From IMG/VR virus record IMGVR_UViG_3300035564_000075, positions 20,631 to 84,630 of that record: a stretch of 64,000 nucleotides of DNA, one strand, 5' to 3'. The notes under the pieces are model-generated. The model was given only the letters and a program-made list of their open reading frames with translations. It was not told the origin of the DNA and did not search any database. The DNA comes from a virus. Below, piece by piece: positions 1 to 62,984 of this stretch (position 1 is its first letter; each line of letters opens with the position of its first letter). The position numbers were made by a program, and so were the translations under genes.

Positions 1-1
1 A

Positions 2-3000
2 GCCCCATTACTTCAGGCAGAAGTAAGTGAAGGAGAAGAGACTAAGTTTGCCGGTTCTAGCTCTATGCAGATGCTTGCACAGAGAATTTGGACATCCTTC
101 GAGCGCGCCTCAGGACAAGTTGGTGCCACTCCACATTCTGTATTCTGGAGTTCCGTAGTAAGGGGAAACGAGGAAGTTCAGCCTGCTACTGCACTTGGTT
201 GGCATGCCAATGAGTTGGCACAGAACATCACACGTGGTCAGATACGCTTCAATGTCAATGCAATGGGCAAACCTCTATATCCTAGTGATGTAGAGCAAGT
301 CCAGAGAGACCTGATGTCTCAAATCAGGTATGGCAAGAATCAGATTATGGGTCCTGGCAACCAGCATGATCAGGGCGTTGGTGCAACCTTTGGTGAACTG
401 GGACGTGGTGGATATGTGCAGAAGGGCGGGTTCCTAATTCCTATCACACAGATAACCAGAACTACTGCAGAGGGAACTGAATGGTTCCTACCAGGAACTG
501 CAGAAAGTGCCGCAAAGTCTCTTCGTAGAATTGGTACATTGCCTCCAGAAGCACTTCCTTATACTAAGGGAGTGGGTCCAAATAACGTCTATCAGCAAAT
601 GCAAGCAACCCCTGCAACCGGACAGGGAGCAGGCTATGCGCTATTGAATATGATCCATCCTGGTGAAACTCAGGCACGTACTGCGCCTGTAGGCAACCTT
701 TGGGTATCTGGTGTTAGTGGTATCCCTGGTGGTGGACTAGAGCCTTCTAATGCATGGAGACCATCTGCATGGGGAAACACCACGGTTGAGGATCTCGATC
801 TTCCTATTAGGAATATTGGAGAGGCCACTGCTGAAAACTTCCCGTTCAAGTTCCGCAATGTAGTAGGAAAGAACTATGAACCTGGGGAAGGTTCTCCTAT
901 CGTTGGTACATACAATGTTGGCGGAAGTGAAAGGAACCTAACTCTACGTCCAGTAGAGAGTGCTCCACTATCTCCTTTGTCACAAGTTGTGCTTGTTCCA
1001 TCATGGAAGAATCCAGTAACTGGTGAATTCCTTGCAACCAAGAAGAGGGGTGCGGTAGCAGTATCTGATGCAGAGGTACTGGCTGTATCTCAAAGATCTG
1101 GTTTGCCAGCACAGAGAGTAGAGGGTTATACCTCTCTGGCGTTGTCTGTTACCAGTCTATACAGAACTGCACAGAAAACTGGTGGTACTATCAAGGCACT
1201 TGGCGTTCCTACTGGCATGGAACAGTATGTCCATGTAGGTGGACAGAAGGTACCGATCGATTTGGTTACTGGTGAACTGAAGTCATCTCTTGCCATCACG
1301 CAGGACTTTATGGCTTCTCGTTCTCGTTCTCAGGTACTGATGATGCTTGAGGATTACACCAAGAGAACCAGTGTTTCCGGTGGTCAAGAATTGGTAGAGT
1401 ACTACAAGAAAGAGTTTATGTCTGGTAAGAGACCTGCTACTATGGAGGAACTTGCCTCTCAACTTAGCATTTATGGCGAAGGACAGACTGAAGAGATCAG
1501 CAGACTGCAGAGATGGAAGTCATCTCTGACTGACATGAATACTGTCTTCAACATGAGCGAACTAAGCAAGGAAGAGTTGAGGATTCATGGTACAACCAAT
1601 GCATCTAATCTTTCTACCTACATAGACCAAAGAATTTCTACTGTTCGTGACTCTGCATTCTCTGGTAATGGTATGCAACTTGGTAGTGAGATCTTCAAGA
1701 ATACAGTTCTTGCAGAGAGTGATGCAGAGAGAGCTATGAAGCGCTATGGCGGCTTCTTGACACCAGAGGGTAACGAGATAGTCCATGGTGCCATGCATCC
1801 AGAGTCTATCAAGTGGGCAATCCAGGCTGCAATGGCAACTGGAATGACACAATCACAGGCAACAAAAGATGTCAAGAGAAGGTTCACGTTTCAAGATCCT
1901 TCTGGCAATCCTATAACACTTCAGCAAGCTATCAAGCTTGGCGAGAGTGGTAAACTTCCTATTGCCTTTGAGCATCCAGAAAGAAGAAGTGTAGTTCTGA
2001 TGGGACAGCCTCTTCCAAGAATGATGGAATGGGCTTCAAGGCAGACAAGAATTGGTTATGAGACTGGTACATATCTGTCTTCTATGTTTCCAAAATTCAT
2101 GTCAGGTATTGGTGCGAACACACGTGAATCTCACAAAATGAGAGGCATGGAAGGACCCGAGCGTGAAGTAGATGCTTATGTAAAGTGGTCACTCACTCTT
2201 GCAAAGCAGAATGAGCAGTATCCTGATATTACTAAGCTAGGAAAGGGAAGGGAATATACAGGAAAGGAAGAGACTGCTGCGGCTATGACCGTTGCAGAAG
2301 ACTTGCTTGTAAAATCTGCTTCAGATCTTGCCGAAACTAGAAACAATCCCGATGCAACTCCAGAGATGATCAATCAAATGGAGGATGCATATCAATATCG
2401 CAAGTCCAACTTCATGGAAATAAGACAGAAGCTGGATATGCCGCCTGAAATGCCGCTTATGCCAGAGAAGTATCAGGAAGTAAGCGAATCCAATATGAGT
2501 AATATTGGTTCCTGGCTATCTTCCCCAGAGGGACAGCAGGCAAGTGACGAAACCAAGCTAGACTTCATTCGCTCTACTATTGGAGAGGGAGAGGGACCCC
2601 TATTCTATGGTCATATCAAGGATGGCAAACTCGTTTCTGGCCCTGGACATCTAATTCCACGCCCTGAACTTATCAAGGAACTGCAGTACAACGACAAGAT
2701 CACTGGAGAGTCAATTGGTAACATCTCTGCTCTCTATACTGGAATCTTTTCTGGTAAGTCTGGACCCGAGAGACTATTCAACATCCTAAAGGATCGTCTA
2801 GGCGCAAAGAGCGAGGCTTACAAGAATGCATGGGGCTTCAAGACTCCATCTGGTTGGGGTGGTAGATTTGGAAACCTAGAGGCTCTTGCACCAGATGAAA
2901 TCTATCTGCCTCCAAGTGAGCGCAAGAGAATGCTTCGTCAGATGGGATTCAGGGGACAGAAGCTATCCAAGGCCATGCTGCAACTTGAGAAGATGGGTGA

Positions 3001-6000
3001 TGTACAGGGAATCGGATTCCGTATTCCTGTAGGTTCACGCGGCCAGCAGATGATGGCAATGAGACTTGTTACAGAAAGGACTCTGCGCGAGAGACTTGGC
3101 AGTGCTGTAAATCGTGGTGCGTTACTTGGACAATTGAAGCAGACTACTGGTATGTCCTTTGTCAGCAAGCAGTTCGCTGCCGTTGGTAAGGGTGACTTCG
3201 ATGCAGACTTTATGATGTCTTTGTTCGGTTTGGCTAGGGACAAGGATGATAATCTCGTCAAGACCGATACCACCGAACTGGGTGCAATTCAGATAAAGAC
3301 CAGTGAGGATGCTGTAGGGCTTCTTCGTAAGATGGGATTGAATGTAGAGGAAGACATTCCAAAGGAGTCTCTGGATACTATCAAGGAAGTTCTTGATAAA
3401 CCAGGATTCCACTCTGCACAAGAGGTTATGGAAGCCTTCTTCAAGCTAGGCGTTTCAGAGACTGGTCGTGGCACTACCTACAACATCCAGCGTATCTTCA
3501 CGCCTTTCATGCAGATGGCAGGCTTCAAGACAAAGCAAGTTGATGCAGTTACCTCTGCAATGCAGAAGATCTACAGTGCCGCATTGGACAACTGGAATGT
3601 AAAGAACAAGCGTGAGCTATTGGGCGACACGCTTACTTCCGCTATCTCTACTGCAGAGATCCGTATGGGAGATAGTGGTCCATATCTGCACCTGGGAACG
3701 CGTATTCCTAAGAAGGGTTCTCCTGGAAACATTGGTTACAACTTTGCGCCCGAGCAACTTGTTCAGGGTGGCGTAAAGAATCTCATGCTGGAACTTGCAC
3801 GCAGAGCCAACACTCCTCTTGAGGTTGTTGGAAAGAATGGCGAAATTACCAAGGAATATCAGTGGACTGCAGAATCTGTAGCACAGCTATTCACTGGTCC
3901 TGGCAAGAGCTCTAAGGCGCTAAAGGCAAAACTAGAAGCTGCTGGACTTGGCAACTTCTATGGTCCTCTTGCTGAAGAGATCAACTCTAAGTTCGAGGGT
4001 GCAAAAGATCACGAAGATACCATAAGAATCAGCAATGAATTTATGATGACACCGATCGTGGGCTCTACTCTTACTTCTGCATTGGTACGTGCTAATGGAG
4101 ATCCAGATGCAGAGTATGCTGCTGCTGAATTCTTCCGTAAGTCAGGTTACTCTGGCAAGCTGATCAAGGCTTCTGCAACTCTTGCTCGTATTCAATTGGG
4201 CAAGGCAGATGTCTCTGCCGATGAGATCTTCGATGCTCTAAAGGTAATGCCAAAGGGTGTTGATAGAGAGTCACTTGTTCAGGTTGCCATTCAGCGTGGT
4301 ATTAGAGTGCCAAAGTATCAGGGCAAGGAAGGCGCTCCAGATCCTAAGAGACAGGTGGAAGCTGCATTTGAGAGAGCAGTTCCACAACAGGGTGTCCTAG
4401 CCACTGGTGCTGCTGCCAGAAGAGGCAGGGGCGGAATGAGTCCCGTAGAGCGTGCAGTAGTTGAGAGTGCTACTCAAATTGCTCCTGGTGTTGGTAGAAG
4501 GGCGGGACTTATCCCAGATCCTGATGCCATTCTGGAGAGGAATATAGACGATGTATCAATGGGAGAGGCTGACAGACTATTGGGTGCTGCTGTATCAAGT
4601 GCTCCTAGAGTTCTGTCTGCTTTGGGCGGCAAAGATACTGGACTATATAGCAGAATCCAGGCCGCTGTATCTGCTGCTACAGGTGTTGGCGTTGGTGATC
4701 TTGGTTCAAGATTCGGCAATCAACTAGCCGAGCAGATTGGTGGTGCTTCTTCTACTCCCGAGAATCTTGAGAAGTTCGTGCGCGCATTGGGCGCAGGTGA
4801 CTTCGACAAGATCAAGGAAGTTCAGAAGGGTGTATCTGCATCCAGAATTGGTGCCTATGTTGCTCCTAGAGCATCAGCTAAGATGAACATGGCTGCTGTA
4901 ACTGCACTGAACGCCAGTGGTCAGGCTGCACAGATTGCAGGCATTGGTGATATGAATGCAGTTGAAAGAGAAGTGGGTAAGCAAGCGCAGGAAGTAACAA
5001 TATCCCCTGAAGCGCAGAAGGCTGCAAAGCTAGAGACACTGTACAATAACTGGATTGCCATGACTGATAAGCATGGCAAGATTATGGAGAAGTACCAACC
5101 CGCCTTTGATAAGATGGTACATGATTTTGGAGAAGTTGGTAAAGACTTCGAAAAAATGAGCAAGGGCGAAAAGAGGGGCGTGGTTGGTGGCTTCGCTGCA
5201 CAGCGTGAGGAAGATGCCAAGTCTGAACAAGCTGCTGCAAGACAGGCTGCTCAGGGAAGAATCGCTGCTGGTGGCGGAACTGGTACACCAGAAGATATAG
5301 CCCTTGCTGCTAGTGGTGGTGACGAGGGCGGTAGTACTCCTGGAAGAAGAATCGCTTCAACCTTCCGCAAGCTATTAGGCGGTTGGGGCCTAATGTACAT
5401 GAAGGATATTGCTGGCTACGTGACTGGTGGTGTTGGTTGGGGACAGGGCGAAGCAGAGCAGTATCGTGGTGCACAGGCTGGCGTGATTGGCAAGCAAGTT
5501 GGAATGACTTCTCCATACCAGTCATACGCACAACGTACTGCCACCATGATGGGTCTTGCGGGAAGTGATGTAAACGCAAAGCAATATCTGGATAGAATAC
5601 AGGCACAGAACCAAGCAATTCAGCTTGGCTTTGGTGGTCTATCTGCTGGTGTGGCTGGTGCGGCTGGTTACTCATTCATTGCGCAAAGTGGTGCACTTGG
5701 AGCAGGTCTTGCATCAGAAGCAAGTATTGGTGCAGTTGCTCCTATACTTGGATTGGCAATCGGTGCTGGTGCAGTTGCTGCCAATGTTATTGGTAGGGCA
5801 TCCGATACACAAGGTACTGGTTATGGTCTTTCTAAGGCAACTTCCTTTGGTAGCGCACTTGCTAACATAGGATCGATTGCCGCAAACAAGATACAGGACA
5901 AAACTCAAAAGGCTCAAAGTAATCAATCAGCAATTGATTACACAATAGCAAGAGACATTGTTACCAGTGGTGGAAGGGTGGCGCAGTTTGCTGGTGGTTC

Positions 6001-8383
6001 ACCAGATGCTGTAAAGGCTGCTTCTCTTGCTACAATATTCTCTGAGCAATATGGACTTGATGCACAGAGTGCTGCACAGGTGGCCGCATTCTATGTTCAA
6101 AATCCTAATATGACGATGAACGCTACTTCTGTAAAAGCACTTGCTGCTAATTATAGCTATGGCGGAAATATGGAGGCCATATCAGGTGGTGCCGTTGTAA
6201 ATTCCGGTTTCAGTGGTAAGCAAGCACAAGATATAGCGCAGAGGGGTATGCAGACACTGGCCGGTGGACAAAAGATATTCAACGGTGTAACATCCTATGA
6301 TGTTGCAACGGGCAAGCCTATATCTGGTGACAGGTATTCAACGCCAACCGTGTATAAGCAACTAGAGCAAGAGGCAATTGCTGGTGGACAGAAGTTCCTT
6401 GGTCAGGTTCCTGGTGGTCAGTATCTGCAATATGGTGCACAGGGAGCTACACCAGCCAATGGAATGAATATCGTTGCACAGAACCAATATGCACAACAAG
6501 CATTTGGTCTAACTCCATATCAGCAACAGGCTATGATGACATCTGGTACTTTTACTGATCAGTTGAGAAACTATGGCTGGAAGGGTTCACAGCTTGACGT
6601 AAAAGATATGATGGCTGCAGGACAGATCACACAGGCGCAGTCTTATAGGTATGCTCTACAGGCACAGTATGGATCACAACTTCTTGGTGGTATGGCTTCT
6701 GGAAATCCACTAACATGGTCATCCGTAGCCAGGGCCTCTGGACAGGCTGGCATACCATCTTATGGTGGCTTGCAGACTACATGGGGACAGAATGTATCAA
6801 GTCAGTATCTTGGATTCACTGACATCAATCCTACAACGGGTGCCCCTACTGGACAGGCATGGGGAACCAGTTCTCTTGCCATGTATGGTACTCCTGCTCC
6901 AGCAGTAGCGCAACAGATTTGGAATAGGTTGCCACAACCAAACGAAAGAGGGATTGGTGTAAATGCTGGACAAGGATTTACTTTAGGACAGGCACAAGCT
7001 GCTTATGGTAAGTATGGTGGTGGCGCAATCAACGCCATGACGAACGGCTTCAATGTCAATGGTACTACTTACTATGGACAGCAAGGATTGCAGGGTTTCC
7101 AGAATCAGCAATCTTATGACTTCTCTATGGCTTCTGCTGGCTTGGCAATGACAGGCGCAAAGGCAAGTTTGGCATTTGCAACTGGTATTGGTATCAACAA
7201 GTACAACAATATCAATCCTCAGACCGGACAGTACTTCAACATAGGCGCACAGAGCTATGGCTTCGATGCTGGTAAGTATGGATCATACCAATCAGTAGGT
7301 GGTGGTATGTGGGGCATTGAGGATGCACAGCGCTATCTTGGATATGCACAGCAACAGGCTAGCTTTGGCTTCCAGCAGAAAGGAATGAATTTGCAGGCTA
7401 CGCAGTTTGGACAGACGATGGGATTGCAGTGGCAAGGCATGCAACTAAGTAGACAACAGGGTACAGAGGAATATCAGTTCCAGTCTGGTCTAGCTGCACA
7501 TCAGTTTGGTTTTGGACAGACGATGTTCAGAGAGCAGGCAAGATTTACTTCTGGCCGTGAGCGTCGCCTGGAAGAGATGCAGAACAAGGAAAATGTTACC
7601 GTCTATGGAATGGAAAAGAATCAGAGAGACAAGGAATTCGCATTCCAGAAAGAGAGATGGAAGCTAGAAGAGCAACAGCACAAGTTGCAGATCCAGCAGT
7701 TTGCAGAGACTAAGAAACTACAGCAAGAAGAGTTGGATGCCAACCGCAAGTTCTGGGAAGAAGGCAAGAAGCTCTCCGAGGCGGCTGTACAACTACAGCG
7801 TGCTGAGTTCATTGAGAACAACAAACTACAGCAACAGTCTGCTGCACTTCAGGCTGCACAAGCACAAGCAACCAAGCAGATGGCCGATGTTATGATTCCA
7901 TACACCAAGTATAGTGGTGATGTAAGTGGTATGCTGGACAGCATGAACGCAACTACCCTTCCAGACATGATAGCCTATTTGACAAATGTAAACTCTGGAA
8001 TGATAACCTTCATCTCAAATCTAGCTACAGTTCAGGCATTACTAGGTGGTGGCTGGCAAGGACCTCTTCCTGGAGAAGGACAGCATGCTACTGGTGGTTC
8101 TCTTGGCCCTGGTGTTTCTTCCGTTGGTGAGGCTGGTTGGGAGTTCGCCGTTGGTAATCAGATTATCCCACATGCAACATCCGTAGGACTATATAATGCT
8201 GGTATGCGTCCTGGCATGAGTTTTGCACAGGGCACCAATAAGATCAACGAGTATATGGATAGGGCAATGCTTCCATTCAGTGGAGGCGGTGGTTCTAAGC
8301 CGATGCAAGTCAATGTATACGTTGGTAATGAACTGTTGCAGTCCTTTATTATTGACGCAGTTAGCAAGGATCTAAACAACTAA
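2..8383 (+). CDS. Giant tail tape-measure protein with N-terminal two-barrel (DPBB) RNA polymerase-like region; 5' end lies outside the window
   Basis: Frame has no stop from nt 2 to the Met at 65, so the gene is truncated. RNAP-like motifs: GWGGRF..LAPDEIYLP (2852), GFRIP (RIP 3020-3028), GKGDFDADF (DFDAD 3194-3208). The C-terminal half is Gly/Ala/Gln-rich with hydrophobic segments, a coiled coil and the TMP-type end HATGG..VGEAGWE..QVNVYVGNE. It lies directly upstream of Dit/hub genes. Confidence 0.8.
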   Translation, partial: APLLQAEVSEGEETKFAGSSSMQMLAQRIWTSFERASGQVGATPHSVFWSSVVRGNEEVQPATALGWHANELAQNITRGQIRFNVNAMGKPLYPSDVEQVQRDLMSQIRYGKNQIMGPGNQHDQGVGATFGELGRGGYVQKGGFLIPITQITRTTAEGTEWFLPGTAESAAKSLRRIGTLPPEALPYTKGVGPNNVYQQMQATPATGQGAGYALLNMIHPGETQARTAPVGNLWVSGVSGIPGGGLEPSNAWRPSAWGNTTVEDLDLPIRNIGEATAENFPFKFRNVVGKNYEPGEGSPIVGTYNVGGSERNLTLRPVESAPLSPLSQVVLVPSWKNPVTGEFLATKKRGAVAVSDAEVLAVSQRSGLPAQRVEGYTSLALSVTSLYRTAQKTGGTIKALGVPTGMEQYVHVGGQKVPIDLVTGELKSSLAITQDFMASRSRSQVLMMLEDYTKRTSVSGGQELVEYYKKEFMSGKRPATMEELASQLSIYGEGQTEEISRLQRWKSSLTDMNTVFNMSELSKEELRIHGTTNASNLSTYIDQRISTVRDSAFSGNGMQLGSEIFKNTVLAESDAERAMKRYGGFLTPEGNEIVHGAMHPESIKWAIQAAMATGMTQSQATKDVKRRFTFQDPSGNPITLQQAIKLGESGKLPIAFEHPERRSVVLMGQPLPRMMEWASRQTRIGYETGTYLSSMFPKFMSGIGANTRESHKMRGMEGPEREVDAYVKWSLTLAKQNEQYPDITKLGKGREYTGKEETAAAMTVAEDLLVKSASDLAETRNNPDATPEMINQMEDAYQYRKSNFMEIRQKLDMPPEMPLMPEKYQEVSESNMSNIGSWLSSPEGQQASDETKLDFIRSTIGEGEGPLFYGHIKDGKLVSGPGHLIPRPELIKELQYNDKITGESIGNISALYTGIFSGKSGPERLFNILKDRLGAKSEAYKNAWGFKTPSGWGGRFGNLEALAPDEIYLPPSERKRMLRQMGFRGQKLSKAMLQLEKMGDVQGIGFRIPVGSRGQQMMAMRLVTERTLRERLGSAVNRGALLGQLKQTTGMSFVSKQFAAVGKGDFDADFMMSLFGLARDKDDNLVKTDTTELGAIQIKTSEDAVGLLRKMGLNVEEDIPKESLDTIKEVLDKPGFHSAQEVMEAFFKLGVSETGRGTTYNIQRIFTPFMQMAGFKTKQVDAVTSAMQKIYSAALDNWNVKNKRELLGDTLTSAISTAEIRMGDSGPYLHLGTRIPKKGSPGNIGYNFAPEQLVQGGVKNLMLELARRANTPLEVVGKNGEITKEYQWTAESVAQLFTGPGKSSKALKAKLEAAGLGNFYGPLAEEINSKFEGAKDHEDTIRISNEFMMTPIVGSTLTSALVRANGDPDAEYAAAEFFRKSGYSGKLIKASATLARIQLGKADVSADEIFDALKVMPKGVDRESLVQVAIQRGIRVPKYQGKEGAPDPKRQVEAAFERAVPQQGVLATGAAARRGRGGMSPVERAVVESATQIAPGVGRRAGLIPDPDAILERNIDDVSMGEADRLLGAAVSSAPRVLSALGGKDTGLYSRIQAAVSAATGVGVGDLGSRFGNQLAEQIGGASSTPENLEKFVRALGAGDFDKIKEVQKGVSASRIGAYVAPRASAKMNMAAVTALNASGQAAQIAGIGDMNAVEREVGKQAQEVTISPEAQKAAKLETLYNNWIAMTDKHGKIMEKYQPAFDKMVHDFGEVGKDFEKMSKGEKRGVVGGFAAQREEDAKSEQAAARQAAQGRIAAGGGTGTPEDIALAASGGDEGGSTPGRRIASTFRKLLGGWGLMYMKDIAGYVTGGVGWGQGEAEQYRGAQAGVIGKQVGMTSPYQSYAQRTATMMGLAGSDVNAKQYLDRIQAQNQAIQLGFGGLSAGVAGAAGYSFIAQSGALGAGLASEASIGAVAPILGLAIGAGAVAANVIGRASDTQGTGYGLSKATSFGSALANIGSIAANKIQDKTQKAQSNQSAIDYTIARDIVTSGGRVAQFAGGSPDAVKAASLATIFSEQYGLDAQSAAQVAAFYVQNPNMTMNATSVKALAANYSYGGNMEAISGGAVVNSGFSGKQAQDIAQRGMQTLAGGQKIFNGVTSYDVATGKPISGDRYSTPTVYKQLEQEAIAGGQKFLGQVPGGQYLQYGAQGATPANGMNIVAQNQYAQQAFGLTPYQQQAMMTSGTFTDQLRNYGWKGSQLDVKDMMAAGQITQAQSYRYALQAQYGSQLLGGMASGNPLTWSSVARASGQAGIPSYGGLQTTWGQNVSSQYLGFTDINPTTGAPTGQAWGTSSLAMYGTPAPAVAQQIWNRLPQPNERGIGVNAGQGFTLGQAQAAYGKYGGGAINAMTNGFNVNGTTYYGQQGLQGFQNQQSYDFSMASAGLAMTGAKASLAFATGIGINKYNNINPQTGQYFNIGAQSYGFDAGKYGSYQSVGGGMWGIEDAQRYLGYAQQQASFGFQQKGMNLQATQFGQTMGLQWQGMQLSRQQGTEEYQFQSGLAAHQFGFGQTMFREQARFTSGRERRLEEMQNKENVTVYGMEKNQRDKEFAFQKERWKLEEQQHKLQIQQFAETKKLQQEELDANRKFWEEGKKLSEAAVQLQRAEFIENNKLQQQSAALQAAQAQATKQMADVMIPYTKYSGDVSGMLDSMNATTLPDMIAYLTNVNSGMITFISNLATVQALLGGGWQGPLPGEGQHATGGSLGPGVSSVGEAGWEFAVGNQIIPHATSVGLYNAGMRPGMSFAQGTNKINEYMDRAMLPFSGGGGSKPMQVNVYVGNELLQSFIIDAVSKDLNN

Positions 8384-8832
8384 TGACAACATACAGTTAC
8401 TTCACTCTTACTACAATGAACCGTGGTGCATCTGGTCCAACTACTACCAAGAAATTCAGGGTAGTAGATGGTGGCTATGCTCCCTATCTTGAGAAAGCAG
8501 AGAACATGGATGTTACGGTAGAGGGCAAGCTGGATATTTCACAAGGTGCCGTTCATAAAGCCTACGATTTCATTGTCAAGGTTTATCAGGAAGATCCAAG
8601 TGGTGATTCCAGCTATGCAACCTATGCCGACTTAGAGACATTTTTCAGGTATAATAAACCATTGGGCTCTCCTTCAAACATGTTCTACATGACTGACCAC
8701 TATGGTGAACATAGCTATGTCAAGTTTGGTGGGCAATTGAAACAACAACCCGCTACTGTGTTTCTTGAAGGAAAGAATGCAATTTACTTCATTCAAATTT
8801 CTCTGAAAGTACTGGATCAGGTTGACATATGA
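8383..8832 (+). CDS. Putative distal tail (Dit-like) protein
   Basis: 149 aa, beta-rich, immediately after the TMP with overlapping TAATG stop/start; this is the canonical Dit position. Confidence 0.55.
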   Translation: MTTYSYFTLTTMNRGASGPTTTKKFRVVDGGYAPYLEKAENMDVTVEGKLDISQGAVHKAYDFIVKVYQEDPSGDSSYATYADLETFFRYNKPLGSPSNMFYMTDHYGEHSYVKFGGQLKQQPATVFLEGKNAIYFIQISLKVLDQVDI

Positions 8833-11800
8833 GAACAGTTTCTGATGCAATCACCAATGTAATCACCAAAGAAACGATGTACAAGGTGTTGCCTAGAATC
8901 ACTGCTTACAAATCACGTGTATATTTTGAGAATGCAGACCTAGACGACCACGCTCCTTCGTTGCCTTTACACTCTGGACAGATAGTTCTTCCAGAGGCTG
9001 TTACCCTATCTGCTACAGCCCACAAAGCCATAACAGTTGTTGTCAACACTGGAGTTATCAAGTTTCTGATTGAGGGAGACTCTTCTCCACTCACTCCACT
9101 TATTAGCAGTTCTCCGATCGTTGCAGATTACTTGAGCAGACCTGCATGGTATGGCAATAAGCTATATTACAGCAATGGCAGTGGCTGGCTTGAAACCACC
9201 ATTGATACAGATAAGGTAGTCGCAAGGAACACTGCATGCGCAAGTGCACCTTCTGTATGGTTGGATGGTGGTGTTGCCGCTGTACACATGGTAGGAGATG
9301 GACAGGCCATCTATGTGTATATCGAAGATGGAAGAGTCAACTTTGGCTATATTGATTCTAACAAGGATTACCACGATTGCCCAGGACACATCTTCGATCC
9401 AGTATGTGTTTTGGATGCAACCGTAGATGCTGGACTAATACATTATTCTACTGCCGCAAAAGTAGGTAACAAGATCTTTGCATACTTCAGCAGGTACGAT
9501 GGTGCCGTGGTGGGTGTTTACTATCAGACTGAAGACGGTATCAATGGAAGCTGGTCAGACTTCTTCGTTGCAATTCCAGAGGATCTAAGCGCATTCGACC
9601 TAACAAATGCTATAAGCGTCGATGGCAATGTTTTCCTAATAGGAAGATTCTATAGGAAGGATCAGTTTTCTGCCGATGCAGTATACACCTTGCTTCTACA
9701 ATCTCCAGATGGCATGACCTTCAATATGGATAGAAGGTCTCTTGTCACTACCATTGACGATCGCTTTGAAGTATTCTATGATAGCACTACCAAAGAAGTG
9801 GGATTCATTGCCAAGAACAAGTCATATCGTTCAACTGCTCCATTCTGGATGATAGGTGAAGATGCAGAAAGCATAACCATTGACATGGATTCTGTGTCTG
9901 GTTCTGTTACTTCTGGTTGGGCTGTGAAGCTGAAGTCTGGAGAAGAGGAATACTTTGCTAATGAATTGGTAGCAGAGGGAAACTTTGCCGATCTATACCT
10001 TGGTGTCGAGACAGGTGTTGCTGGAGATGAAGACGATCCTGGCTTTGAGTTTGTACACTATCACCAATGCGTTATAGAAAGTGTAGAGAAAGGTTGGGCC
10101 GATGGTGTTAGGGAGATGCAGATAAAATTACTACCTGCGGCTCTCTGGCAAACACAGTCTATGACACATCCCTTCTATATGGAATGGCAGGGCAAGCAGT
10201 ATTTGCAAGCCAAGATCCTGACCCTAGACAATTTGTATGCTGCCAGCGATAGTAATGGACAGCTATGGTCGCTATCACAGGACTTCTGGCAGGCAAGCAA
10301 TCCAAAGGCTTATGCGGTACAGACACATGCTGGACAACAAACAACTGATACATGGGCCGATGATCTCGTAGATTCTGCACTTGCTGTATCTTATCCCGAG
10401 TTCGGTTCTTCTGCAACCTACCAGATGAATATCTATGGCTGGTCTAGGGCTGGTATCCCTTCTTGCAACCCCAATGAGGCCGATTCTACCCCTACTTCCA
10501 CCCCTAATGATAAGTTCTATGGATTATTGCTGGTAGAAGACTTGGATGGTGTTGAACATACGATCGTAACAACGGATGGAGAACTTGCATCTAACCCAGG
10601 CTTCCCTATTGGAGACACATCACACACAAATCCTCCTCAGACATGGTTTGGTGCTGGCGTTAGGGCTGGTTCCTATCCTGTTTCTTATAACCTGAGCCGT
10701 TCAACGCATAGCATCTTGCCAGGATGGAAGATAAAGAAACTAGGAGTAAGGGTTGTCTCAGATCCTGCCAATGCCACGCACAGCACCACCTATTATCTTG
10801 AACGTGTGGATATGCCAAGGATTACCGTTGCATACTCTACAACGAGTAGTGTTGGTTTCGATGCGGTTACAGTTCCTAATACTGTATTCACCACGCAGAA
10901 AGGTGTTGCACAGATCCTGTTCTCTGTATCGCCTTACTCTACTTGGAACTTCGAGTTGAGTGGTAGGTTTACCTACATAGGACCATACTCTTATGTCGGC
11001 TTGATAGGACTGGCTACCGACAAAGACAACTTTGTAGTTGGATATGTGAGATCTGGCTATCTTGGACTTGCCAGAGTCAACCAAGGAATCCGCACTACCA
11101 TTCAGGAAGTGCCTCTTGCAGAACTGATAGAAGCAACCCATGTGGACGGAAGCAATCTCATCCACGATGGATTGACAGTTGATGTTCGCTTCTGGCACAA
11201 AGATGGCAACTTTGGTGTTGAGTACAAACTGCCAAGCACAGTTGATTGGCCTCTAAGGGGTAGTCAGCTTACTCATACATGGGAAACCGCAGATGGCGTT
11301 ATTGCCTATGAAGTTCCAGTTCCTACGCTAGAAGAAACTGGCATGAGTACAGATAGCACTGGTTCTTATGTCTACCATGTAGGAATCTATGCGATCATCG
11401 ATCCACCTAAGTTCCGTACAACCGGATTCCGTTCATCTGGTAGTATTGCACCTACGAAGCCATGCGATATAGATCCTTTCTCTGGATATTCTCAGCTATA
11501 CAGGTTTCCACACACAGGTAAGGTATCCTGCGATGATATAGTTTACAACTTTAGCTCAAAAGATGTCTCACTTTCGGGCGTAAGTGGATCATCTGGTGGC
11601 TATGGCAAGAATCCATACGACTACGATCCCGATACCCTAACAGGACAGTACCTGCCAAAGGCCAGGGGTCCTTATCTCATCTACAATATCCAGGACTGGG
11701 CTTGCTGCAACAAGGATCTTGTTGGTGGCTATCACTTTACTGGTACGCATGCTATTGAGTTCTCTGACTTCGCATGGCTATCCTATGATCCAGGATCTTA

Positions 11801-12266
11801 CATGATGTCATCTGCACAGGTGTACAGATATAGGACTCTGGCAACCTCAGATGGCATAGCGTGGGAAGCTGGTGCCGCATTCTGGATGCCATGGATCACC
11901 ACCAATAACAAGAAAGTGATGCAGATGGAAAGAATAAGAGTCTACACAGAGGGCGATGTCGTCATCAATCAGGATGTTGGCTCTGGAGATGTGAAGAAGG
12001 TGTGGTTGACAGATGCGCTCAAGGGTTTGTCTCTCGAAACTGCCAGAGATGATGAAGTCACACACGATGAAGGTACATTTGTCTATCTGCACAGTGGAGA
12101 CAAGGTTATCATCACAAACTTCATGGGTGTTAGCGGAGATCCGGACAATACCGTAGAAGGACTTCTTGCCAAACTATGTATTATCTCAGGTACACAGGCA
12201 TCCTTCCCTGGAGACACAACGCCTGCAAACATTACCCTTGCAAGTGGTGAAGAGGTAACAGTATGA
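8829..12266 (+). CDS. Large baseplate/tail-tip protein
   Basis: 1145 aa, acidic and beta-rich, starts MRTVSDAI as many tail-tip proteins do; follows the Dit-like gene. Confidence 0.55.
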   Translation: MRTVSDAITNVITKETMYKVLPRITAYKSRVYFENADLDDHAPSLPLHSGQIVLPEAVTLSATAHKAITVVVNTGVIKFLIEGDSSPLTPLISSSPIVADYLSRPAWYGNKLYYSNGSGWLETTIDTDKVVARNTACASAPSVWLDGGVAAVHMVGDGQAIYVYIEDGRVNFGYIDSNKDYHDCPGHIFDPVCVLDATVDAGLIHYSTAAKVGNKIFAYFSRYDGAVVGVYYQTEDGINGSWSDFFVAIPEDLSAFDLTNAISVDGNVFLIGRFYRKDQFSADAVYTLLLQSPDGMTFNMDRRSLVTTIDDRFEVFYDSTTKEVGFIAKNKSYRSTAPFWMIGEDAESITIDMDSVSGSVTSGWAVKLKSGEEEYFANELVAEGNFADLYLGVETGVAGDEDDPGFEFVHYHQCVIESVEKGWADGVREMQIKLLPAALWQTQSMTHPFYMEWQGKQYLQAKILTLDNLYAASDSNGQLWSLSQDFWQASNPKAYAVQTHAGQQTTDTWADDLVDSALAVSYPEFGSSATYQMNIYGWSRAGIPSCNPNEADSTPTSTPNDKFYGLLLVEDLDGVEHTIVTTDGELASNPGFPIGDTSHTNPPQTWFGAGVRAGSYPVSYNLSRSTHSILPGWKIKKLGVRVVSDPANATHSTTYYLERVDMPRITVAYSTTSSVGFDAVTVPNTVFTTQKGVAQILFSVSPYSTWNFELSGRFTYIGPYSYVGLIGLATDKDNFVVGYVRSGYLGLARVNQGIRTTIQEVPLAELIEATHVDGSNLIHDGLTVDVRFWHKDGNFGVEYKLPSTVDWPLRGSQLTHTWETADGVIAYEVPVPTLEETGMSTDSTGSYVYHVGIYAIIDPPKFRTTGFRSSGSIAPTKPCDIDPFSGYSQLYRFPHTGKVSCDDIVYNFSSKDVSLSGVSGSSGGYGKNPYDYDPDTLTGQYLPKARGPYLIYNIQDWACCNKDLVGGYHFTGTHAIEFSDFAWLSYDPGSYMMSSAQVYRYRTLATSDGIAWEAGAAFWMPWITTNNKKVMQMERIRVYTEGDVVINQDVGSGDVKKVWLTDALKGLSLETARDDEVTHDEGTFVYLHSGDKVIITNFMGVSGDPDNTVEGLLAKLCIISGTQASFPGDTTPANITLASGEEVTV

Positions 12267-19320: not shown

Positions 19321-20430
19321 GTGCGTCTTCATATTATAGGTATGCCACATTCGATAACTACAGAGGCATTCCAGACCTGCGCTTTCACGCAAAAGGTCTG
19401 GAAGTTCTGTAAGATGATGCCCAAGTATGGTTGGGAAATCGTGCACTATGGGGTAGAGGGTGCAGATGTTCCTACTAGGAAAATAGACTTGGCGACTAGA
19501 GCAGAATGGGATGCGGCCTATGGAGATAGAGATCCCTCAGAATTCTATAATAAATCTCCGAACGATTTTGTGGTAGAATTCAATAGGCGCGCAGTAGAAA
19601 GTGTAATGCAGAACTCTGCAGAAGATGATGCAATCTTGTTCCCTTATGGACAACAGGCCATAGCGGAAAGACTGACCAACAGAAGGTTGCAGGTAGAGTC
19701 TGGAATAGGCTATGAGGCTGTATTTGCACGCTACAAGATATTTGAGAGTCGTGCATGGGCAAACAGGATCTATGGAGAACTTGGAGTAGAGGATGTACCT
19801 CACTTCGATGGTATAATACCTAACTACTTCGATCCAGAGAAGTTGCCGCTGGTCACAAAGAAGGATGACTACTTCCTATATATGGGGCGTTTGATACCGA
19901 GAAAGGGAGTGGCGATAGCAGCAGAAGTGTGCAGGATTCTCGGTAAAAAACTGGTTGTAGCTGGACAGGGCTCTTTGAGAACTGCACATATAACAGATGC
20001 TAACGTGGAGTTCCTAGGACCAGTAAATGATCCCATACAGAAAGCAGAACTTATAGGTCGTGCGGCAGCAGTATTCTGCCCAACGCAATACTTCGAACCT
20101 TTTGGTGGTGTTGCGGTTGAAGCTATGATGACTGGTACTCCGGTAATATCATCCGATCATGGTGCCTTTCCCGAGACAATCGTACAGGGAATTACCGGAT
20201 GGAGATGCCAAGTATATGATGATTACATTCAGGCCGCACAAAGATTAGATGTCTTCGACCCAATGAGAATTCATCGCTATGCAGTAAACAATTTCTCCAT
20301 GGATCGTATATCAAAACTATATGACCTTTACTTCAGGCGATTGCAACTTGCAAACCAACCTGATGGATGGCTCAAACCAAATGAAGCTAATACTGAAGAA
20401 GCATATTGGCATGAGACCATACCAGCTTAG
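19321..20430 (+). CDS. Glycosyltransferase, GT-B fold family 4
   Basis: YMGRLIPRKG and EPFGGVAVEAMMTGTPVI (ExF..E) GT4 motifs. Confidence 0.9.
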   Translation: MRLHIIGMPHSITTEAFQTCAFTQKVWKFCKMMPKYGWEIVHYGVEGADVPTRKIDLATRAEWDAAYGDRDPSEFYNKSPNDFVVEFNRRAVESVMQNSAEDDAILFPYGQQAIAERLTNRRLQVESGIGYEAVFARYKIFESRAWANRIYGELGVEDVPHFDGIIPNYFDPEKLPLVTKKDDYFLYMGRLIPRKGVAIAAEVCRILGKKLVVAGQGSLRTAHITDANVEFLGPVNDPIQKAELIGRAAAVFCPTQYFEPFGGVAVEAMMTGTPVISSDHGAFPETIVQGITGWRCQVYDDYIQAAQRLDVFDPMRIHRYAVNNFSMDRISKLYDLYFRRLQLANQPDGWLKPNEANTEEAYWHETIPA

Positions 20431-43385: not shown

Positions 43386-45025
43386 TACAAGTTACCCAGT
43401 CTCCCGCATGATGTTCATCCTCCACATTGCCACACTTAGGACATTCCCAAGAACAACAAACACTATACAACATTACAATCCTTTTGCTCTTCTTAGGAAC
43501 TATAGGAGCAGGAGGAGGAGCTTCAGTTGTGCTACCCTCATTAGAAGCAGTCATATTAGCATCCTTTCATGGCATCTTGCAACACTTTTACCACGTGATC
43601 TTCGCCTTCGTCTTCTTCATCCCAACGACCGTCCAGAGTAGTGACAGCTTCATCCATTGCTTCTTTATATTTTCTTAGTTTGCTAACAAGAGTCCAAACT
43701 GTGTTTGCTATCATGTTTTTATGGGTATGATTCATGTTTACAAGATCCAGTCCAAGATACTCAATTACATCACCAGTATCACTAAATTTATGATCAGTAA
43801 TGTCATTATTGTCATCGAATATGTTCATTGTGCTCTCCTCTTAGGCTCTGGCAAAGATTCTCGCTTGATAGCAGGAACCTCTTCTGGAGTCTTCCTAGTA
43901 GGAATTGTATACTGAATTCGCACAGGATCTTCCTTAGGCAATTCAATTGTTTCCTTACGTTTGCTTCTTCTCATTTTGTCCTATGGCACCACTCACTATG
44001 CATACCATCCAGCCATCCACAATACTCACACTTGGATAGTTCTTTAGAACGGTATCCTACCAACACACCTGGGCCACAACCAAGATTAGCACTGGCATCA
44101 ACCCAAGGACCAAACTTGCTATTGATCATGTCTGCAATACCACGCGCACGATTCTTGAATCTTGTCTCGATAGAGAAAGTTCCACTGGATAGAACGTAAT
44201 CAGGCAATCGAATTTTGTGCCATGAGTAAGTATTTACATAGTCAACAATCTCTTTGGGAGTAGGTTTCTTCATACATCACCCACTACAGACATCAGTTTC
44301 TATCTCAAGAGTATCAGTCCCTGAATTGTACAGAATGTCTTCAACTTCTCCTTCTGCACCATAGCAACCAATCACAACTATTTCTATATCTCCATATTCC
44401 TCTAGCATATGTCGCAATCTTTTTGCCATCTCTGATAATGTCATAGTTTTTCTCCTTTCAACTCTATGATTTGTTCTTGTGCACGATCGTAGAGATCTTT
44501 CATCATATCATACTTTCGCTGATAGGAACTCAATCTTGCCAGAGCAATATTCAAGGCATCTCTTATATTGCCCTTGCCAACCTTGACAATCCAATCATCA
44601 ATCTCCTGTGATACGGTTTTTGATGTCATCTGGAATACCTACCCATGGAGTTTTCTTTGCCACTGGGAAACGTATAAAGACGTCCTCGTAGCAAGCAGTG
44701 CAACGGGATGAACGTGTTGTGCGCTCAACTTTATTGACCGTACCGCAAATAGGACAGGTGAAGTCCCACAATTCAGGATCATCAGAGGGATTGTTTATGC
44801 TGGCGGATTCCATAGCCACTCCTTATGGTTGCTGGATGAACTGGAATTTCAAGCCAATATCTATCTTGAAGTGTTCTTATATCGAAAACCTGTCTCAAAC
44901 CACGCCACCAGATATAAACTTTATATCCATACCAGTAGCGTGCTTTTACCCAACCACCATCCCATTCCAGTAAAAAGTCATGCTCCTTATCTGGTTCTTG
45001 TTCTGAAATAAGTTTCCATTCCATA

Positions 45026-45385
45026 TTATGCCTGCTTGAACGCAAAACCAGCCATATGATCAGCTTCTGCCATCTCTTTGATTGATAGAAGATACTCTTT
45101 CAATCCAGGAGCATTCTGTAGTTCTCCAGAGAATTTCACTTCAACCAGAAGTGCTTGCTGATGTTCTTTGTAAGTGAGTATTTTAGTGCCATGCCTACGG
45201 TTGTTATGCACACAGATGTCGCAATAGCAACCCTTGCTCTCTGCTTCCTCAATTCTTGGGCCATCTAAATATATACCTTCTCCATCAAGATGGCAAGGTT
45301 TGATCATATAGGGGTGAGGCACACCAATTGTATCAATCACTGCATACATTTCAGTTTTAGGGTACTTCTTCAGCTTCTCATCCAT
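45026..45385 (-). CDS. Hypothetical zinc-binding protein
   Basis: GVPHPY..H..CDIC..H; start moved to MDEKLK, which has a GAGGAG RBS. Confidence 0.55.
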   Translation of the reverse strand: MDEKLKKYPKTEMYAVIDTIGVPHPYMIKPCHLDGEGIYLDGPRIEEAESKGCYCDICVHNNRRHGTKILTYKEHQQALLVEVKFSGELQNAPGLKEYLLSIKEMAEADHMAGFAFKQA

Positions 45386-45389
45386 GTTA

Positions 45390-45737
45390 TCACTCCTCTG
45401 TCTTGGTGAATTTGATTTCACCAGTACGGACAAACAAAGTGCGATCAATCGATATTCTCATTGGAGTACCAGTCAATTTGAAAAATTCATCCCATTCATC
45501 TATAAAATCAAACAGTTTCTTCATATATCTTTTAGTGTATGGTTTTTCTCCATCAAGTAAACCGCCATTCTCATCAGCAAAGAAGGCAGTTCCCATCCCC
45601 ATAACAAACTCTTCCATATTTAGATGCTTTCTTAGTATATGACGAGCCATGTCCTCAACTATTTCCAGGGCAAGTTCGTCAGCTTCGTTGTACTTTTTCT
45701 CTAGAATCAGGGTCTTTCGATAAATATCCTTGTCCAT
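45390..45737 (-). CDS. Hypothetical protein
   Basis: 115-aa ORF with AAGGAG RBS. Confidence 0.55.
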   Translation of the reverse strand: MDKDIYRKTLILEKKYNEADELALEIVEDMARHILRKHLNMEEFVMGMGTAFFADENGGLLDGEKPYTKRYMKKLFDFIDEWDEFFKLTGTPMRISIDRTLFVRTGEIKFTKTEE

Positions 45738-45753
45738 GATGCTCCTTTTTCTG

Positions 45754-45769
45754 GGGTATAATTATACCC
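45754..45769. promoter_or_regulatory. Perfect 16-bp palindrome GGGTATAATTATACCC with a TATAAT on each strand
   Basis: Sits between divergent ATGs at 45737 (-) and 45770 (+). Confidence 0.7.
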
Positions 45770-46252
45770 ATGGACACAGAACTAATCAAAATAAGTCTCA
45801 TGCAAGTATACTACACTATGGCTATTGAAGGAATGTCCAAGAGAGAAGCCTGCGAAAAGCTAGGTATCAATTGGTCAACCTTCATGTATTGGCAATCAGA
45901 GCACCCTGAAGTATACAGAGAATTCTCCGATCGACAAACAGAACTTCTGAAGATAAATGCTGTACAACTGCAAACAGCACATCAGGAAGTTCTAAATAAA
46001 CTAGTCGCACAAGCCAGTGTAGTTACCAATCTATCTGACATTCTCGCCTTGGAGTCTAGATTGCGTGTACTATCCGCTGAAGCTAAACTAAACTCTGGCG
46101 AGGATAGTGCACAGCAAAAGGCTGCTGCCAACTTCTTGACTGGTATACACCAAGTTCCTGGCATATCCAAGATCACTCGAACAACCGAAACAGTTGAATT
46201 TGGTGCTGACGAGAATACCATAGATGGTGAAGTGAAAGAACTTGACAAGTAA
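45770..46252 (+). CDS. HTH protein, terminase small subunit-like
   Basis: GMSKREACEKLGINWSTFMYW HTH, then coiled coil and TIDGEV tail typical of TerS. Confidence 0.55.
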   Translation: MDTELIKISLMQVYYTMAIEGMSKREACEKLGINWSTFMYWQSEHPEVYREFSDRQTELLKINAVQLQTAHQEVLNKLVAQASVVTNLSDILALESRLRVLSAEAKLNSGEDSAQQKAAANFLTGIHQVPGISKITRTTETVEFGADENTIDGEVKELDK

Positions 46253-46990
46253 CTACGGCTTGCCAATTACTTTCTTTTGTGCATCAGAGATCTGGAAATG
46301 CATATCCAGTTGTGTCTTTAGCTCCAAGATGGCACCTTCTGCAGTATCATCATGGCAAGTGACTGAACCAATGTAAGGACCATGCTCATTGCGAAATTCT
46401 GCAGTGGCATCAAATCCTTCGGTATGATCACTTGACTGTAGAATAACCTGAAAGACAGATGGATAGTATTCTTCAGATGCAACAATCTCTCTCATAGTGC
46501 GGGAAATGTCGAACATTAGGATTCTCCTTCCGGATTGTTTGGATAGTTTATCCAAGTAGCCAATTCAGGAAACACAATATATGGAACATGGGACCTACAA
46601 TATTCTTGAACATCAGATGTATTAGACGAAACGATTATGGTAGACCAATTACAAACAGTGTTCTTTTGTTGTAGAATCACTTCTATGTGTCCACTAGGCA
46701 AACGATAGTGCACAAGTCGGTATTCATCAAGTATACCAGTTCCATGGCAATGCGGGCAAATTGTCATATTAGTCTCCTAGATGAGCTAAGCTTATATCTC
46801 TTTGAATCCTGTCACATTCTTTACTTGGTTCATCTTTACAGTGATGACAGAATCCATATCCGCAGACCATACATCTGGGACCATTATGATCACCATGATC
46901 GTATGCAAATATGTCAATTTCTCCATCTTCATTCCTTATCCAAGTATGTCCATGGGTATTTGTTCTATAATCGTATTGCATTCTAACTCC

Positions 46991-47701
46991 TTATTCGTCA
47001 AAAAGGTTGTCAAGGATATGGCTGGAGAATACTTCAATTTCAGTCATAAAGGCATCAAAGCTATACTCTTTTTCTCCATCCTCCATCAACTTATCGGTCA
47101 GTGTCTTCAAAAATAGTATGTCTATTCCCATCAATTGACCACGCAGATCCCTGAAACTGGTCATCTTGAGATTGTTGATTGATAATGCCAACTTGATAAT
47201 CTCAAGACCAGGAATAGTATACCCCTTTTTGATATATTTGCGTAGTCGGAATAGGGATGAGATTGGATACTTTCCAGCAGTATTGTAATACAGTTCTTTC
47301 CTTGCAATATGCTCAACAAAGTTTTCGTGCAGCACAAAGGTCATACCCTCGAAGTCATATGCACCCATGCAGATTGTATAATCAAATTGATCTATAACCT
47401 GCTGTGCACTACCAGATATAAGACTGGTTGATATAACTTGTACCTTGACACCATCTTTGGTGTATGTCTTAGCAGAATCAGATTTATATGACAATTCGTA
47501 ATCCAATTTCTCTATACCAGCAATGAATGTTTCTTCATCGATAGCTTTTCCAAAGAATACATCATAATCAGATATATACTCATTGGCGAAGATAGCTCGT
47601 ACTGCACCACCGGCTATGATGGCATGATTTGCAATAAGTAAGTCATATATTCCAGCCTTCTTCAGGTCTACCAGGAATAGATACTCTTGTTTACTATACA
47701 T
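46991..47701 (-). CDS. Nucleotidyltransferase (Pol-beta superfamily, polyA/CCA-like head)
   Basis: IIAGGAVRAIF..DYDVFF, FDYTICM, RLRKYIKKGY. Confidence 0.85.
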   Translation of the reverse strand: MYSKQEYLFLVDLKKAGIYDLLIANHAIIAGGAVRAIFANEYISDYDVFFGKAIDEETFIAGIEKLDYELSYKSDSAKTYTKDGVKVQVISTSLISGSAQQVIDQFDYTICMGAYDFEGMTFVLHENFVEHIARKELYYNTAGKYPISSLFRLRKYIKKGYTIPGLEIIKLALSINNLKMTSFRDLRGQLMGIDILFLKTLTDKLMEDGEKEYSFDAFMTEIEVFSSHILDNLFDE

Positions 47702-47722
47702 AGAGTTCCTTTCTAAAACACA

Positions 47723-47755
47723 ACTCCCCCAATTCCTATTAGGAAAAGGGGGAGT
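47723..47755 (-). terminator. Hairpin/terminator whose upper stem is the dispersed palindrome
   Basis: ACTCCCCC-AA-TTCCTA-T-TAGGAA-AA-GGGGGAGT, followed by TGTGTTTT on the - strand. Confidence 0.65.
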
Positions 47756-47778
47756 CGGTTTATTTATGAAACGATAGT

Positions 47779-48039
47779 TTATAGACCAAGCAGTGTGGTC
47801 AATGCAGTGACAAGATCTTCTGCAGTGTCCAGATCAAGCTGGATTCCACCATCGCGAGTCACATAGGGCTCGGGACCAGAATCAGCAAGTTTCTGCTTAT
47901 CTTCGCATCCAAAGATGCGAACTGTCTCGACACCACTGGCAACATCTGTCTCTAGCTCTACAGTAACTTCTGATAGAGTATGAAACAGACCATTGGTACC
48001 GAACAGTCGTGCCAAAGTAGTTACAGCAACGTCAGTCAT
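47779..48039 (-). CDS. Hypothetical acidic protein with its own promoter
   Basis: GGAGG RBS and an upstream extended -10. Confidence 0.6.
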   Translation of the reverse strand: MTDVAVTTLARLFGTNGLFHTLSEVTVELETDVASGVETVRIFGCEDKQKLADSGPEPYVTRDGGIQLDLDTAEDLVTALTTLLGL

Positions 48040-48088
48040 TAGAATTTCCTCCGAGGAAAAAGATTAGGTTGTGCGCACCTAGGAAGAA

Positions 48089-48097
48089 ATTATACCA
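48089..48097 (-). promoter_or_regulatory. Extended -10 promoter (TGgTATAAT)
   Basis: + strand attatacca in the intergenic gap. Confidence 0.6.
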
Positions 48098-48101
48098 TAG
48101 T

Positions 48102-48548: not shown

Positions 48549-48549
48549 G

Positions 48550-50185: not shown

Positions 50186-50232
50186 ATAGTCTCCTTTGGG
50201 AGGGAGGCCCCCTTCCTCCCTCAATAGTCTAG

Positions 50233-50712: not shown

Positions 50713-50750
50713 AGTTGTTCTCCTTTAGAATGTTGACGGATAGTGTAACA

Positions 50751-51263: not shown

Positions 51264-51274
51264 AGTTAGTCTCC

Positions 51275-54275: not shown

Positions 54276-54285
54276 TGTATATCTC

Positions 54286-56089: not shown

Positions 56090-56090
56090 A

Positions 56091-57835: not shown

Positions 57836-57846
57836 ATCATCTCTCC

Positions 57847-62960: not shown

Positions 62961-62984
62961 AGGGGCAAATAGAGGAGATGCGAT

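Follow-up and report, generated by a model that had tools for sequence, protein, structure and literature searches.

A giant phage tail protein, probably a fusion of tape measure and two-barrel RNA polymerase, from a new and widespread family unrelated in sequence to known ones

Why would a gene in the tape-measure slot of a phage genome carry the motifs of an RNA polymerase (RNAP)? The question is raised by a giant open reading frame (ORF) at the left end of a 64,000-nucleotide (nt) stretch of the IMG/VR virus record IMGVR_UViG_3300035564_000075 (hereafter the window), which covers bases 20631-84630 of a complete 84,630-bp record with direct terminal repeats of 123 bp. An earlier note, made from the window alone, had read this ORF as a tape-measure protein fused to a two-barrel RNAP, with its 5′ end missing. 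We recovered that end from the whole genome: the gene (P0002) begins with an ATG at genome position 20374, 257 nt upstream of window base 1, is complete at genome 20374-29013 and encodes 2,879 amino acids (aa), residue n beginning at window nt 3n-259. Judging from residue conservation, predicted folds and gene order, we consider it probable that the giant protein is a fusion of a two-barrel nucleotide polymerase and a tail tape measure, the polymerase being most likely a DNA-dependent RNAP that would be injected from the virion. The observation itself is real and far beyond chance, and on sequence and model evidence the protein is most likely a tape-measure-fused two-barrel RNAP of a new, sequence-unrelated and widespread family.

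Conserved residues and predicted folds of the N-terminal half

Translation of window positions 2-8383 and a motif look-up placed all four motifs reported earlier at the correct nucleotides (Table 1). Their order and positions stood; the residue span that had been assigned to them, aa 930-1048, did not, as the span in the window frame is 951-1072. The pattern DxDxD occurs once in the giant protein, as DFDAD, and by our own estimate the chance of a single DxDxD in 2,879 aa is about 1 in 8. Because a lone DxDxD could arise by chance, it is conservation that carries the weight of the motif evidence.

Relatives were sought by an exhaustive HMMER search with residues 300-1450 against 1.84 billion cluster representatives, which yielded 14 at 24-29% identity; 11 of these are 2,734-3,466 aa long and the others shorter (P0003, 1,340 aa; P0015, 1,304 aa; P0016, 1,868 aa). 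The three Asp of DxDxD and the Pro of RxP were invariant in all 15 aligned sequences. In the 11 full-length members, K484, K513, R1093, P1095, D1151, D1153, D1155 and D1282 were invariant, as were further C-terminal positions. A pattern scan of IMG/VR with the 15-sequence alignment matched 107 stretches, of which 32, representing 29 distinct loci, were confirmed by tblastn. Each of the 29 loci contained a stop-to-stop ORF of 2,392-4,042 aa that matched a hidden Markov model (HMM) of the C-terminal module, and the polymerase-region HMM matched 12 of these loci at once and 23 after iteration. In 28 loci, D-x-D-x-D, preceded by Gly as GDxDxD, was found at ORF residues 967-1484 with [RK]xP 25-100 residues upstream. 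The sole ORF without DxDxD in its N-terminal part (L032:3806-10981; 2,392 aa) belongs, by its sequence, to a member that may have lost or replaced the polymerase. Searches of other kinds returned less: word-index homologue searches found the protein itself and P0017 only, and single-protein IMG/VR scans with the window's own stretch, P0015 and P0007 gave no matches.

The alignment of homologues proposed earlier as a test of DxDxD conservation was extended to 26 sequences (the window and 25 loci, leaving out the duplicates L011, L021 and L029, and L032). The R and P of RxP and the three Asp were invariant in all 26, with identities to the window's protein of 14-30%. When 42 sequences were aligned, the Asp triad was present in 41, K484 in 36, K513 in 37, D1282 in 39 and N1247 in 31. 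The fourth residue of DxDxD took at least 11 values across the family (A, Y, R, L, F, W, K, M, I, S, D), and Gly occupied this position in 1 of the 41 motif-bearing sequences of the 42-sequence alignment. Since the fourth position is free in the family, the Gly-to-Ala change in the catalytic loop, which had been singled out as a peculiarity of this phage, is none.

We modelled residues 361-1540 with the 15-sequence alignment (model 1; mean predicted local distance difference test score (pLDDT) 65.5, predicted template modelling score (pTM) 0.43), and the blocks of the catalytic barrel (residues 1033-1197) had pLDDT values of 69-86. A Foldseek search of PDB with model 1 gave no match at E <= 0.001; the best 50 matches listed were all RNAP entries (best E 1.8e-3, probabilities up to 0.99), including bacterial RNAPs, the phiKZ and AR9 non-virion RNAPs and plant Pol IV. 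When a Foldseek-independent fold search was made over 48,161 chains, 45 of the best 50 matched the helical hairpin only (model 475-545) and the other 5 were RNAP chains on the barrel. The predicted fold of residues 1033-1197 aligns to E. coli beta-prime 346-492, and in this alignment model D791-795 falls next to beta-prime 460-464, which we take to be the NADFDGD loop. Some alignments extend to beta-prime 921-932 and Rpb1 about 1061-1103, where model residues 821-887 have pLDDT below 50. A viral structure library yielded one unnamed match at E 1.2e-4 and, lower down, crAss-like proteins, a myovirus 'DNA-directed RNA polymerase', LEF-9, the cowpox 147-kDa subunit and several tape-measure proteins. 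Among the best 50 fold matches listed there was no chain of 8H2M/8H2N, 8F72, 8F5M or 6VR4; a structural match to gp96 of Thermus phage P23-45 (see below) may lie beyond those listed. The predicted beta-prime-like barrel with its DxDxD loop would place the giant protein in the two-barrel RNAP superfamily.

A beta-subunit lysine barrel further upstream had been offered earlier as a weaker guess, and here the outcome was divided. The predicted fold of residues 343-476 aligns to E. coli beta 830-1059, and among the matches listed this domain matches only RNAP second-largest subunits, at Z <= 5.2. The E. coli beta match ends at 1056-1059, in the giant protein at residue 476, and QKTGGTIK484ALG comes next; the GDK..GRHGNKG lysine motif of E. 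coli presumably begins just after beta 1056-1059. Because QKTGGTIK484ALG directly follows the end of the match, the guessed lysine barrel is colinear with the structural match, and its two lysines are the invariant K484 and K513. The lysine strands themselves were poorly predicted: with residues 320-600 folded alone, pLDDT was 88-98 for residues 344-474 and below 50 for residues 476-521. A Foldseek search with this second-barrel model gave weak rows only (best E 0.045), of which 41 of the 49 listed were RNAP entries. We take the lysine barrel, as modelled, to be supportive in combination only. The fold modelling of the N-terminal half that the earlier note had asked for thus gave two predicted folds that, among the matches listed, match only RNAP subunits and in the right order.

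The probable tape-measure module and its conserved gene neighbourhood

The position of the giant ORF, downstream of the tail tube gene and between a chaperone-like gene pair and the distal tail genes, is the tape-measure slot. The gene order upstream runs from the large terminase (phrog_2) through the portal (PF05133, phrog_64), a coiled-coil ORF, a 475-aa ORF in the capsid position, an SU10-type adaptor (PF24175) and a 179-aa ORF to the tail tube (PF18906; 33.7 bits versus a cut-off of 27). Between the tail tube and the giant ORF lies a 143-aa ORF whose end is overlapped by a 126-aa ORF in the -1 frame; the overlap has a GGGGG run 9 nt before the stop of the first ORF and contains no canonical slippery heptamer. 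Tail-chaperone genes in front of a tape measure are usually laid out in this way, and from the sequence we regard the pair as chaperone-like and the frameshift as putative. Downstream, the giant ORF is followed by genes of 149 aa and 1,145 aa (Table 1), a 323-aa gene and a 1,366-aa gene with a laminin-G-like domain, and beyond that domain none of these four matched a family. The label 'Dit-like' attached earlier to the 149-aa gene was left unconfirmed, as no Pfam or PHROGs family matched it. A group-1 glycosyltransferase gene (PF00534, phrog_3408; window 19321-20430) ends the tail gene block.

These neighbours recur with the giant ORF. By phmmer of neighbour genes over the 29 loci, the tail tube was found in 20 (contig ends truncate several loci), the chaperone-like ORF and its overlapping -1-frame ORF in 27 each, the 149-aa gene directly downstream in 25 and the 1,145-aa gene in 24; the arrangement is kept in 27 of the 29 loci. 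The longest contigs of the clade measure 82-89 kb. Given these conserved neighbours, we conclude that the giant fused ORF holds the tape-measure slot throughout the clade.

The C-terminal module, delimited by composition, hydropathy and invariant columns, lies beyond an Ala/Gly-rich linker at about residues 1540-1860. In addition to the features in Table 1, it contains a Gln/Gly-rich stretch, and it is closed at the C-terminal end by a conserved tail, IGNE..FV.D.V. No tape-measure family model of Pfam or PHROGs matched the giant protein or the 15 family members; it is by gene position and architecture that we assign the module to a tape measure. As a lead only, all named nearest clusters among the ESM Atlas language-model look-alikes of the module were tape-measure families (TMP_2, Tape_meas_lam_C, TMP_3, PhageMin_Tail and TMP_4; scores 0.88-0.90), and the N-terminal 1,001 aa gave no usable match there. 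The description of the C-terminal half as tape-measure-like is accordingly upheld by gene position and the look-alike search and not by a Pfam or PHROGs match. Invariant catalytic-type residues, two predicted folds and conserved synteny together support the earlier proposal of a single-chain two-barrel RNAP in the N-terminal half of a protein in the tape-measure slot.

Table 1. Features of the giant ORF and of the two genes that follow it, in window coordinates
Feature	Residues	Window position (nt)	Strand	Basis or remark
Giant ORF, part within the window		1..8383 (stop codon 8381-8383)	+	
Beta-rich domain	343-476	770..1171	+	resembles flap/wall-to-barrel region of RNAP second-largest subunit
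QKTGGTIKALGV	477	1172	+	motif look-up
Lysine-bearing strands of putative second barrel (double-psi beta-barrel B, DPBB-B), QKTGGTIK484ALGV...VPIDLVTGELK513	477-521	1172..1306	+	K484/K513 conservation
Mostly helical connector between the barrels, ~510 aa	522-1032	1307..2839	+	model 1 secondary structure
Long alpha-hairpin in connector	835-905	2246-2458	+	model 1
Predicted catalytic barrel (DPBB-A) with GWGGRF (1037), RIP and DFDAD	1033-1197	2840..3334	+	
GWGGRFGN	1037	2852	+	motif look-up
R-I-P	R1093-I-P1095	3020-3028	+	motif look-up
DFDAD	D1151-F-D-A-D1155	3194-3208	+	motif look-up
G-x-G-x-x-Y-N-x-x-R helix and Y1277/D1282 motif	1240-1282	3461..3589	+	candidate bridge-helix/trigger-loop region
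Tape-measure module	1860-2879	5321..8380	+	composition, hydropathy, invariant columns
GGWGLMYM		5366-5398	+	invariant in family; in tape-measure module
Hydrophobic segment	1988-2019	5705-5800	+	in tape-measure module
RF(T/M)xGRERRL in charged coiled-coil stretch		7532-7582	+	in tape-measure module
149-aa gene directly after giant ORF		8383..8832	+	no family match
1,145-aa distal-tail gene		8829..12266	+	conserved in clade; no family match

Some members of the family differ in their domain content. Two of the shorter relatives, P0015 and P0016, have the polymerase module without the tape-measure module, and of such members one matches a DNA polymerase exonuclease family and one a CRISPR/Cas-associated (Cas4-like) family. 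In P0004, P0007 and P0009 a Hint/intein-like domain, absent from the window's protein, stands just before the conserved C-terminal tail; a CF(L/V/I)xGT...HN pattern was seen by eye, and Pfam PT-HINT, Hint and Hom_end_hint each matched 2 of the 15 members. Pfam and PHROGs on the 15 members gave Hint domains (2 members), the exonuclease family (1) and phrog_1706 (1), and no RNAP or tape-measure family.

Known two-barrel polymerases and alternative explanations

Sequence searches gave no bridge to RNAPs of known kind. A phmmer search of all PDB sequences with residues 1-1466 returned nothing, and the family profiles A1 and A5 gave low-complexity or chance rows only against the same sequences. The models PF00623 (RNA_pol_Rpb1_2) and PF00562 (RNA_pol_Rpb2_6) found no match on the protein or in the six frames of the genome (E <= 10 and E <= 1), and as a control they matched in 14 of 14 control genomes. 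PF00940 had no match in the genome either, a result that is uninformative because the control genomes were equally without one. A tblastn search of 50,697 phage records with the giant protein found no match.

The closest precedent is gp96 of P23-45, which the earlier note had named as a tape measure with an N-terminal RNAP, and the published account bears this out (PMC10770324). It describes gp96 as a 5,002-aa protein with an active RNAP in its first 1,050-1,200 residues and DFDGD at 779-783, of flat and clampless structure with a disordered inter-barrel connector (613-679; PDB 8H2M, 8H2N), in a phage that also encodes a paralogous non-virion RNAP, gp64 (PMC10770324). Like gp96 and its counterparts in P74-26, G20c and TSP4, the giant protein would have an RNAP with a DxDxD loop at the N-terminus of a protein in the tape-measure slot; both have a C-terminal hydrophobic segment, and both phage genomes are about 84 kb. 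The differences are considerable. There is no detectable sequence similarity to gp96 (BLASTP, best E 0.39; hhalign of profiles A1 and A5 against gp96 1-1200, probability below 1%), and tblastn of the structural genes against the P23-45 region 40000-84201 gave no significant match (best E 0.009 over 42 aa). The protein is the shorter of the two, with its motif at 1151 instead of 779; its connector is predicted to be long, mostly helical and hairpin-bearing instead of disordered; Pfam found no metallopeptidase domain on it, unlike gp96; and the complete genome encodes no partner RNAP, whereas P23-45 has gp64. We could only conjecture from the model that the connector hairpin acts as a clamp. RNAP families have little sequence in common outside the DxDxD region (PMC10770324). 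We read the giant protein as a new, sequence-unrelated counterpart of the gp96 design.

Other two-barrel enzymes differ in architecture. The predicted folds put R-x-P, DxDxD and the lysine pair in places corresponding to those of cellular RNAPs (E. coli RpoB/RpoC; Rpb2/Rpb1); unlike these, the giant protein is one chain with the beta-like part before the beta-prime-like part, PF00623 and PF00562 are silent on it, the fourth DxDxD residue is free, and Gly instead of Ala precedes the first Asp. The beta-prime-like subunits of the phiKZ and AR9 non-virion RNAPs (7ogp_A, 8que_A, 7s00_d) belong to split multisubunit enzymes of jumbo myoviruses, unfused to tail proteins. YonO of SPbeta is a further single-chain two-barrel RNAP. 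Neurospora QDE-1 and gp66 of crAss-like phi14:2 are single-chain two-barrel RNAPs without a tape-measure fusion, with no sequence similarity found; gp66 belongs to a short-tailed phage, which packages it in the capsid (as cited in PMC10770324).

The points that weigh against an injected, tape-measure-fused RNAP are best considered together with the explanations that they favor. The N-terminal half might be no polymerase and instead a diverged accessory domain of a tape measure, such as a barwin-like muralytic barrel or a metal-binding structural domain, in which DxDxD has another role. Tape measures often bear cell-wall-degrading domains and double-psi barrels also occur in lytic transglycosylases, both in keeping with this explanation, as is the fact that RNAP-family sequence searches were all negative, Pfam and PHROGs on the giant protein included. 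However, no muralytic or other barrel protein was among the matches listed in any fold search, and both domains match RNAP subunits only, in B-then-A order and with R-x-P, DxDxD and the two lysines invariant; we regard an accessory domain as very improbable. It is also conceivable that the polymerase is real and stays behind, either cleaved off or made late as a non-virion RNAP, so that only the C-terminal part is in the tail. We only infer packaging; in its large size and its 510-aa connector the N-terminal half departs from the flat, clampless gp96 (PMC10770324); and the Ala/Gly-rich linker could be a processing site. Against this stands the fusion itself, which is one open frame in 29 of 29 loci and in 11 cluster representatives at very low identity; that it is kept across such low identity argues for a need of physical linkage. 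A late structural gene would, moreover, be poorly placed for an early enzyme unless that enzyme were virion-borne, and we find an uninjected polymerase unlikely. About equally doubtful is a two-barrel polymerase that is no DNA-dependent RNAP, for instance a QDE-1-like RNA-dependent or primer-making enzyme or a PolD-like DNA polymerase delivered with the genome, given that most fold matches are DNA-dependent RNAPs and no PolD chain was among the matches listed. In addition, gp96, the sole studied analogue in this gene slot, is a DNA-dependent RNAP (PMC10770324).

Proposed role, distribution and significance

We infer catalysis, packaging, injection and promoter use of the fused RNAP, and propose the following course. 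The polymerase would span residues from about 340 to about 1330 of an N-terminal half that is some 1,550 aa long, with a beta-like lysine barrel, the helical connector and a beta-prime-like barrel whose DxDxD loop would bind metal, and the tape measure would extend from about 1860 to 2879. During tail assembly, the fusion protein would be built into the tail lumen with the aid of the upstream chaperone pair. On infection it would be expelled, its hydrophobic segment helping to form a conduit through the envelope, and the polymerase module would then transcribe the first phage genes from the entering DNA, independently of the host enzyme. Because the genome lacks a second phage RNAP, later genes would probably be read by the host polymerase.

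The absence of a second RNAP, noted earlier for the window, extends to the complete genome: no ORF outside the structural block is longer than 461 aa, PF00623 and PF00562 are silent, and the family HMMs match the giant ORF only. The genome also contains no match to sigma factor region 2 (PF04542). By Pfam, ten early-region ORFs include an exonuclease, a radical-SAM protein, a DnaB-like helicase and a DnaC/IstB-like loader and no polymerase. A perfect sigma-70 consensus (TTGACA-16-TATAAT) is located at window 63773-63800 (+), and near-perfect sites at 63121-63148 and 63533-63560 (+); these sites lie near the right genome end and are directed towards the terminal repeat and the tRNA array. Over window 44001-64000, 54 sigma-70-like sites were found versus 42.3 +/- 6.5 expected, which overall is not significant. 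On these findings it is plausible that the host polymerase carries out part of the transcription programme. A direct-repeat scan of window 20000-64000 revealed no clear phage promoter motif.

Several other features of the genome were observed. The 11-base palindrome TCCTANTAGGA has 17 copies in the window (802 to 63584) versus 0.03 expected from shuffles; many are intragenic, and one lies in the giant ORF at 802-812. The tRNA array comprises 29 genes at genome 86-6155 (+), at the left genome end upstream of the window (locus L002). Inside ORF 48842-50224 (-), a 23-nt element recurs at window 49191-49870 in four diverged copies spaced 204-231 nt apart; from sequence, this suggests that the ORF, of 460 aa and without a family match, encodes an internal repeat of about 74 aa.

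The host had been thought to be a member of the Chloroflexota, and the evidence for this is slight. The one relative that turned up in a scan of 185,579 species genomes is 29% identical in the C-terminal module and has GDNDAD in the N-terminal part; its contig, of 66,957 bp, was binned as an uncultured Leptolinea sp. (Anaerolineae, Chloroflexota). One distant relative in a Leptolinea metagenome-assembled genome agrees with such a host; however, binning of a phage contig is weak host evidence. In a sequencing-run search, one DNA run labelled freshwater metagenome contained 0.09 of the sampled words, and no RNA run with the stretch was among the runs listed.

In the literature searched, tape-measure-fused virion RNAPs are described only for P23-45 and its close Thermus relatives (PMC10770324), though the 23 RNAP families of that paper's Supplementary Data 3 and the survey of viral two-barrel RNAPs in its Supplementary Data 4 may already include the present family. 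Thus, the architecture is already known, and what appears to be new, judged by sequence, is a family with no detectable relation to gp96. The architecture recurs in 14 protein clusters and on at least 29 IMG/VR contigs, besides one Chloroflexota-binned contig, and the different connector and lack of a partner RNAP suggest that an injected, tail-tethered transcriptase either is of very deep ancestry or was invented more than once. About 40 sequences now define the residues indispensable to the polymerase, and the family offers a second, mesophilic system for studying the passage of a large enzyme through the tail tube and transcription-coupled DNA entry. A bolder possibility, which we put forward tentatively and hold to be rather doubtful, is that the fusion arose independently, by convergence, in a mesophilic siphovirus clade of wide distribution, perhaps on Chloroflexota, in which the phage's sole own polymerase, with a clamp-like connector, would stay tethered at the tape-measure pore and help to draw the genome in by transcription. 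If this were true, transcription-coupled DNA entry would be a general strategy of long-tailed phages and no Thermus curiosity.

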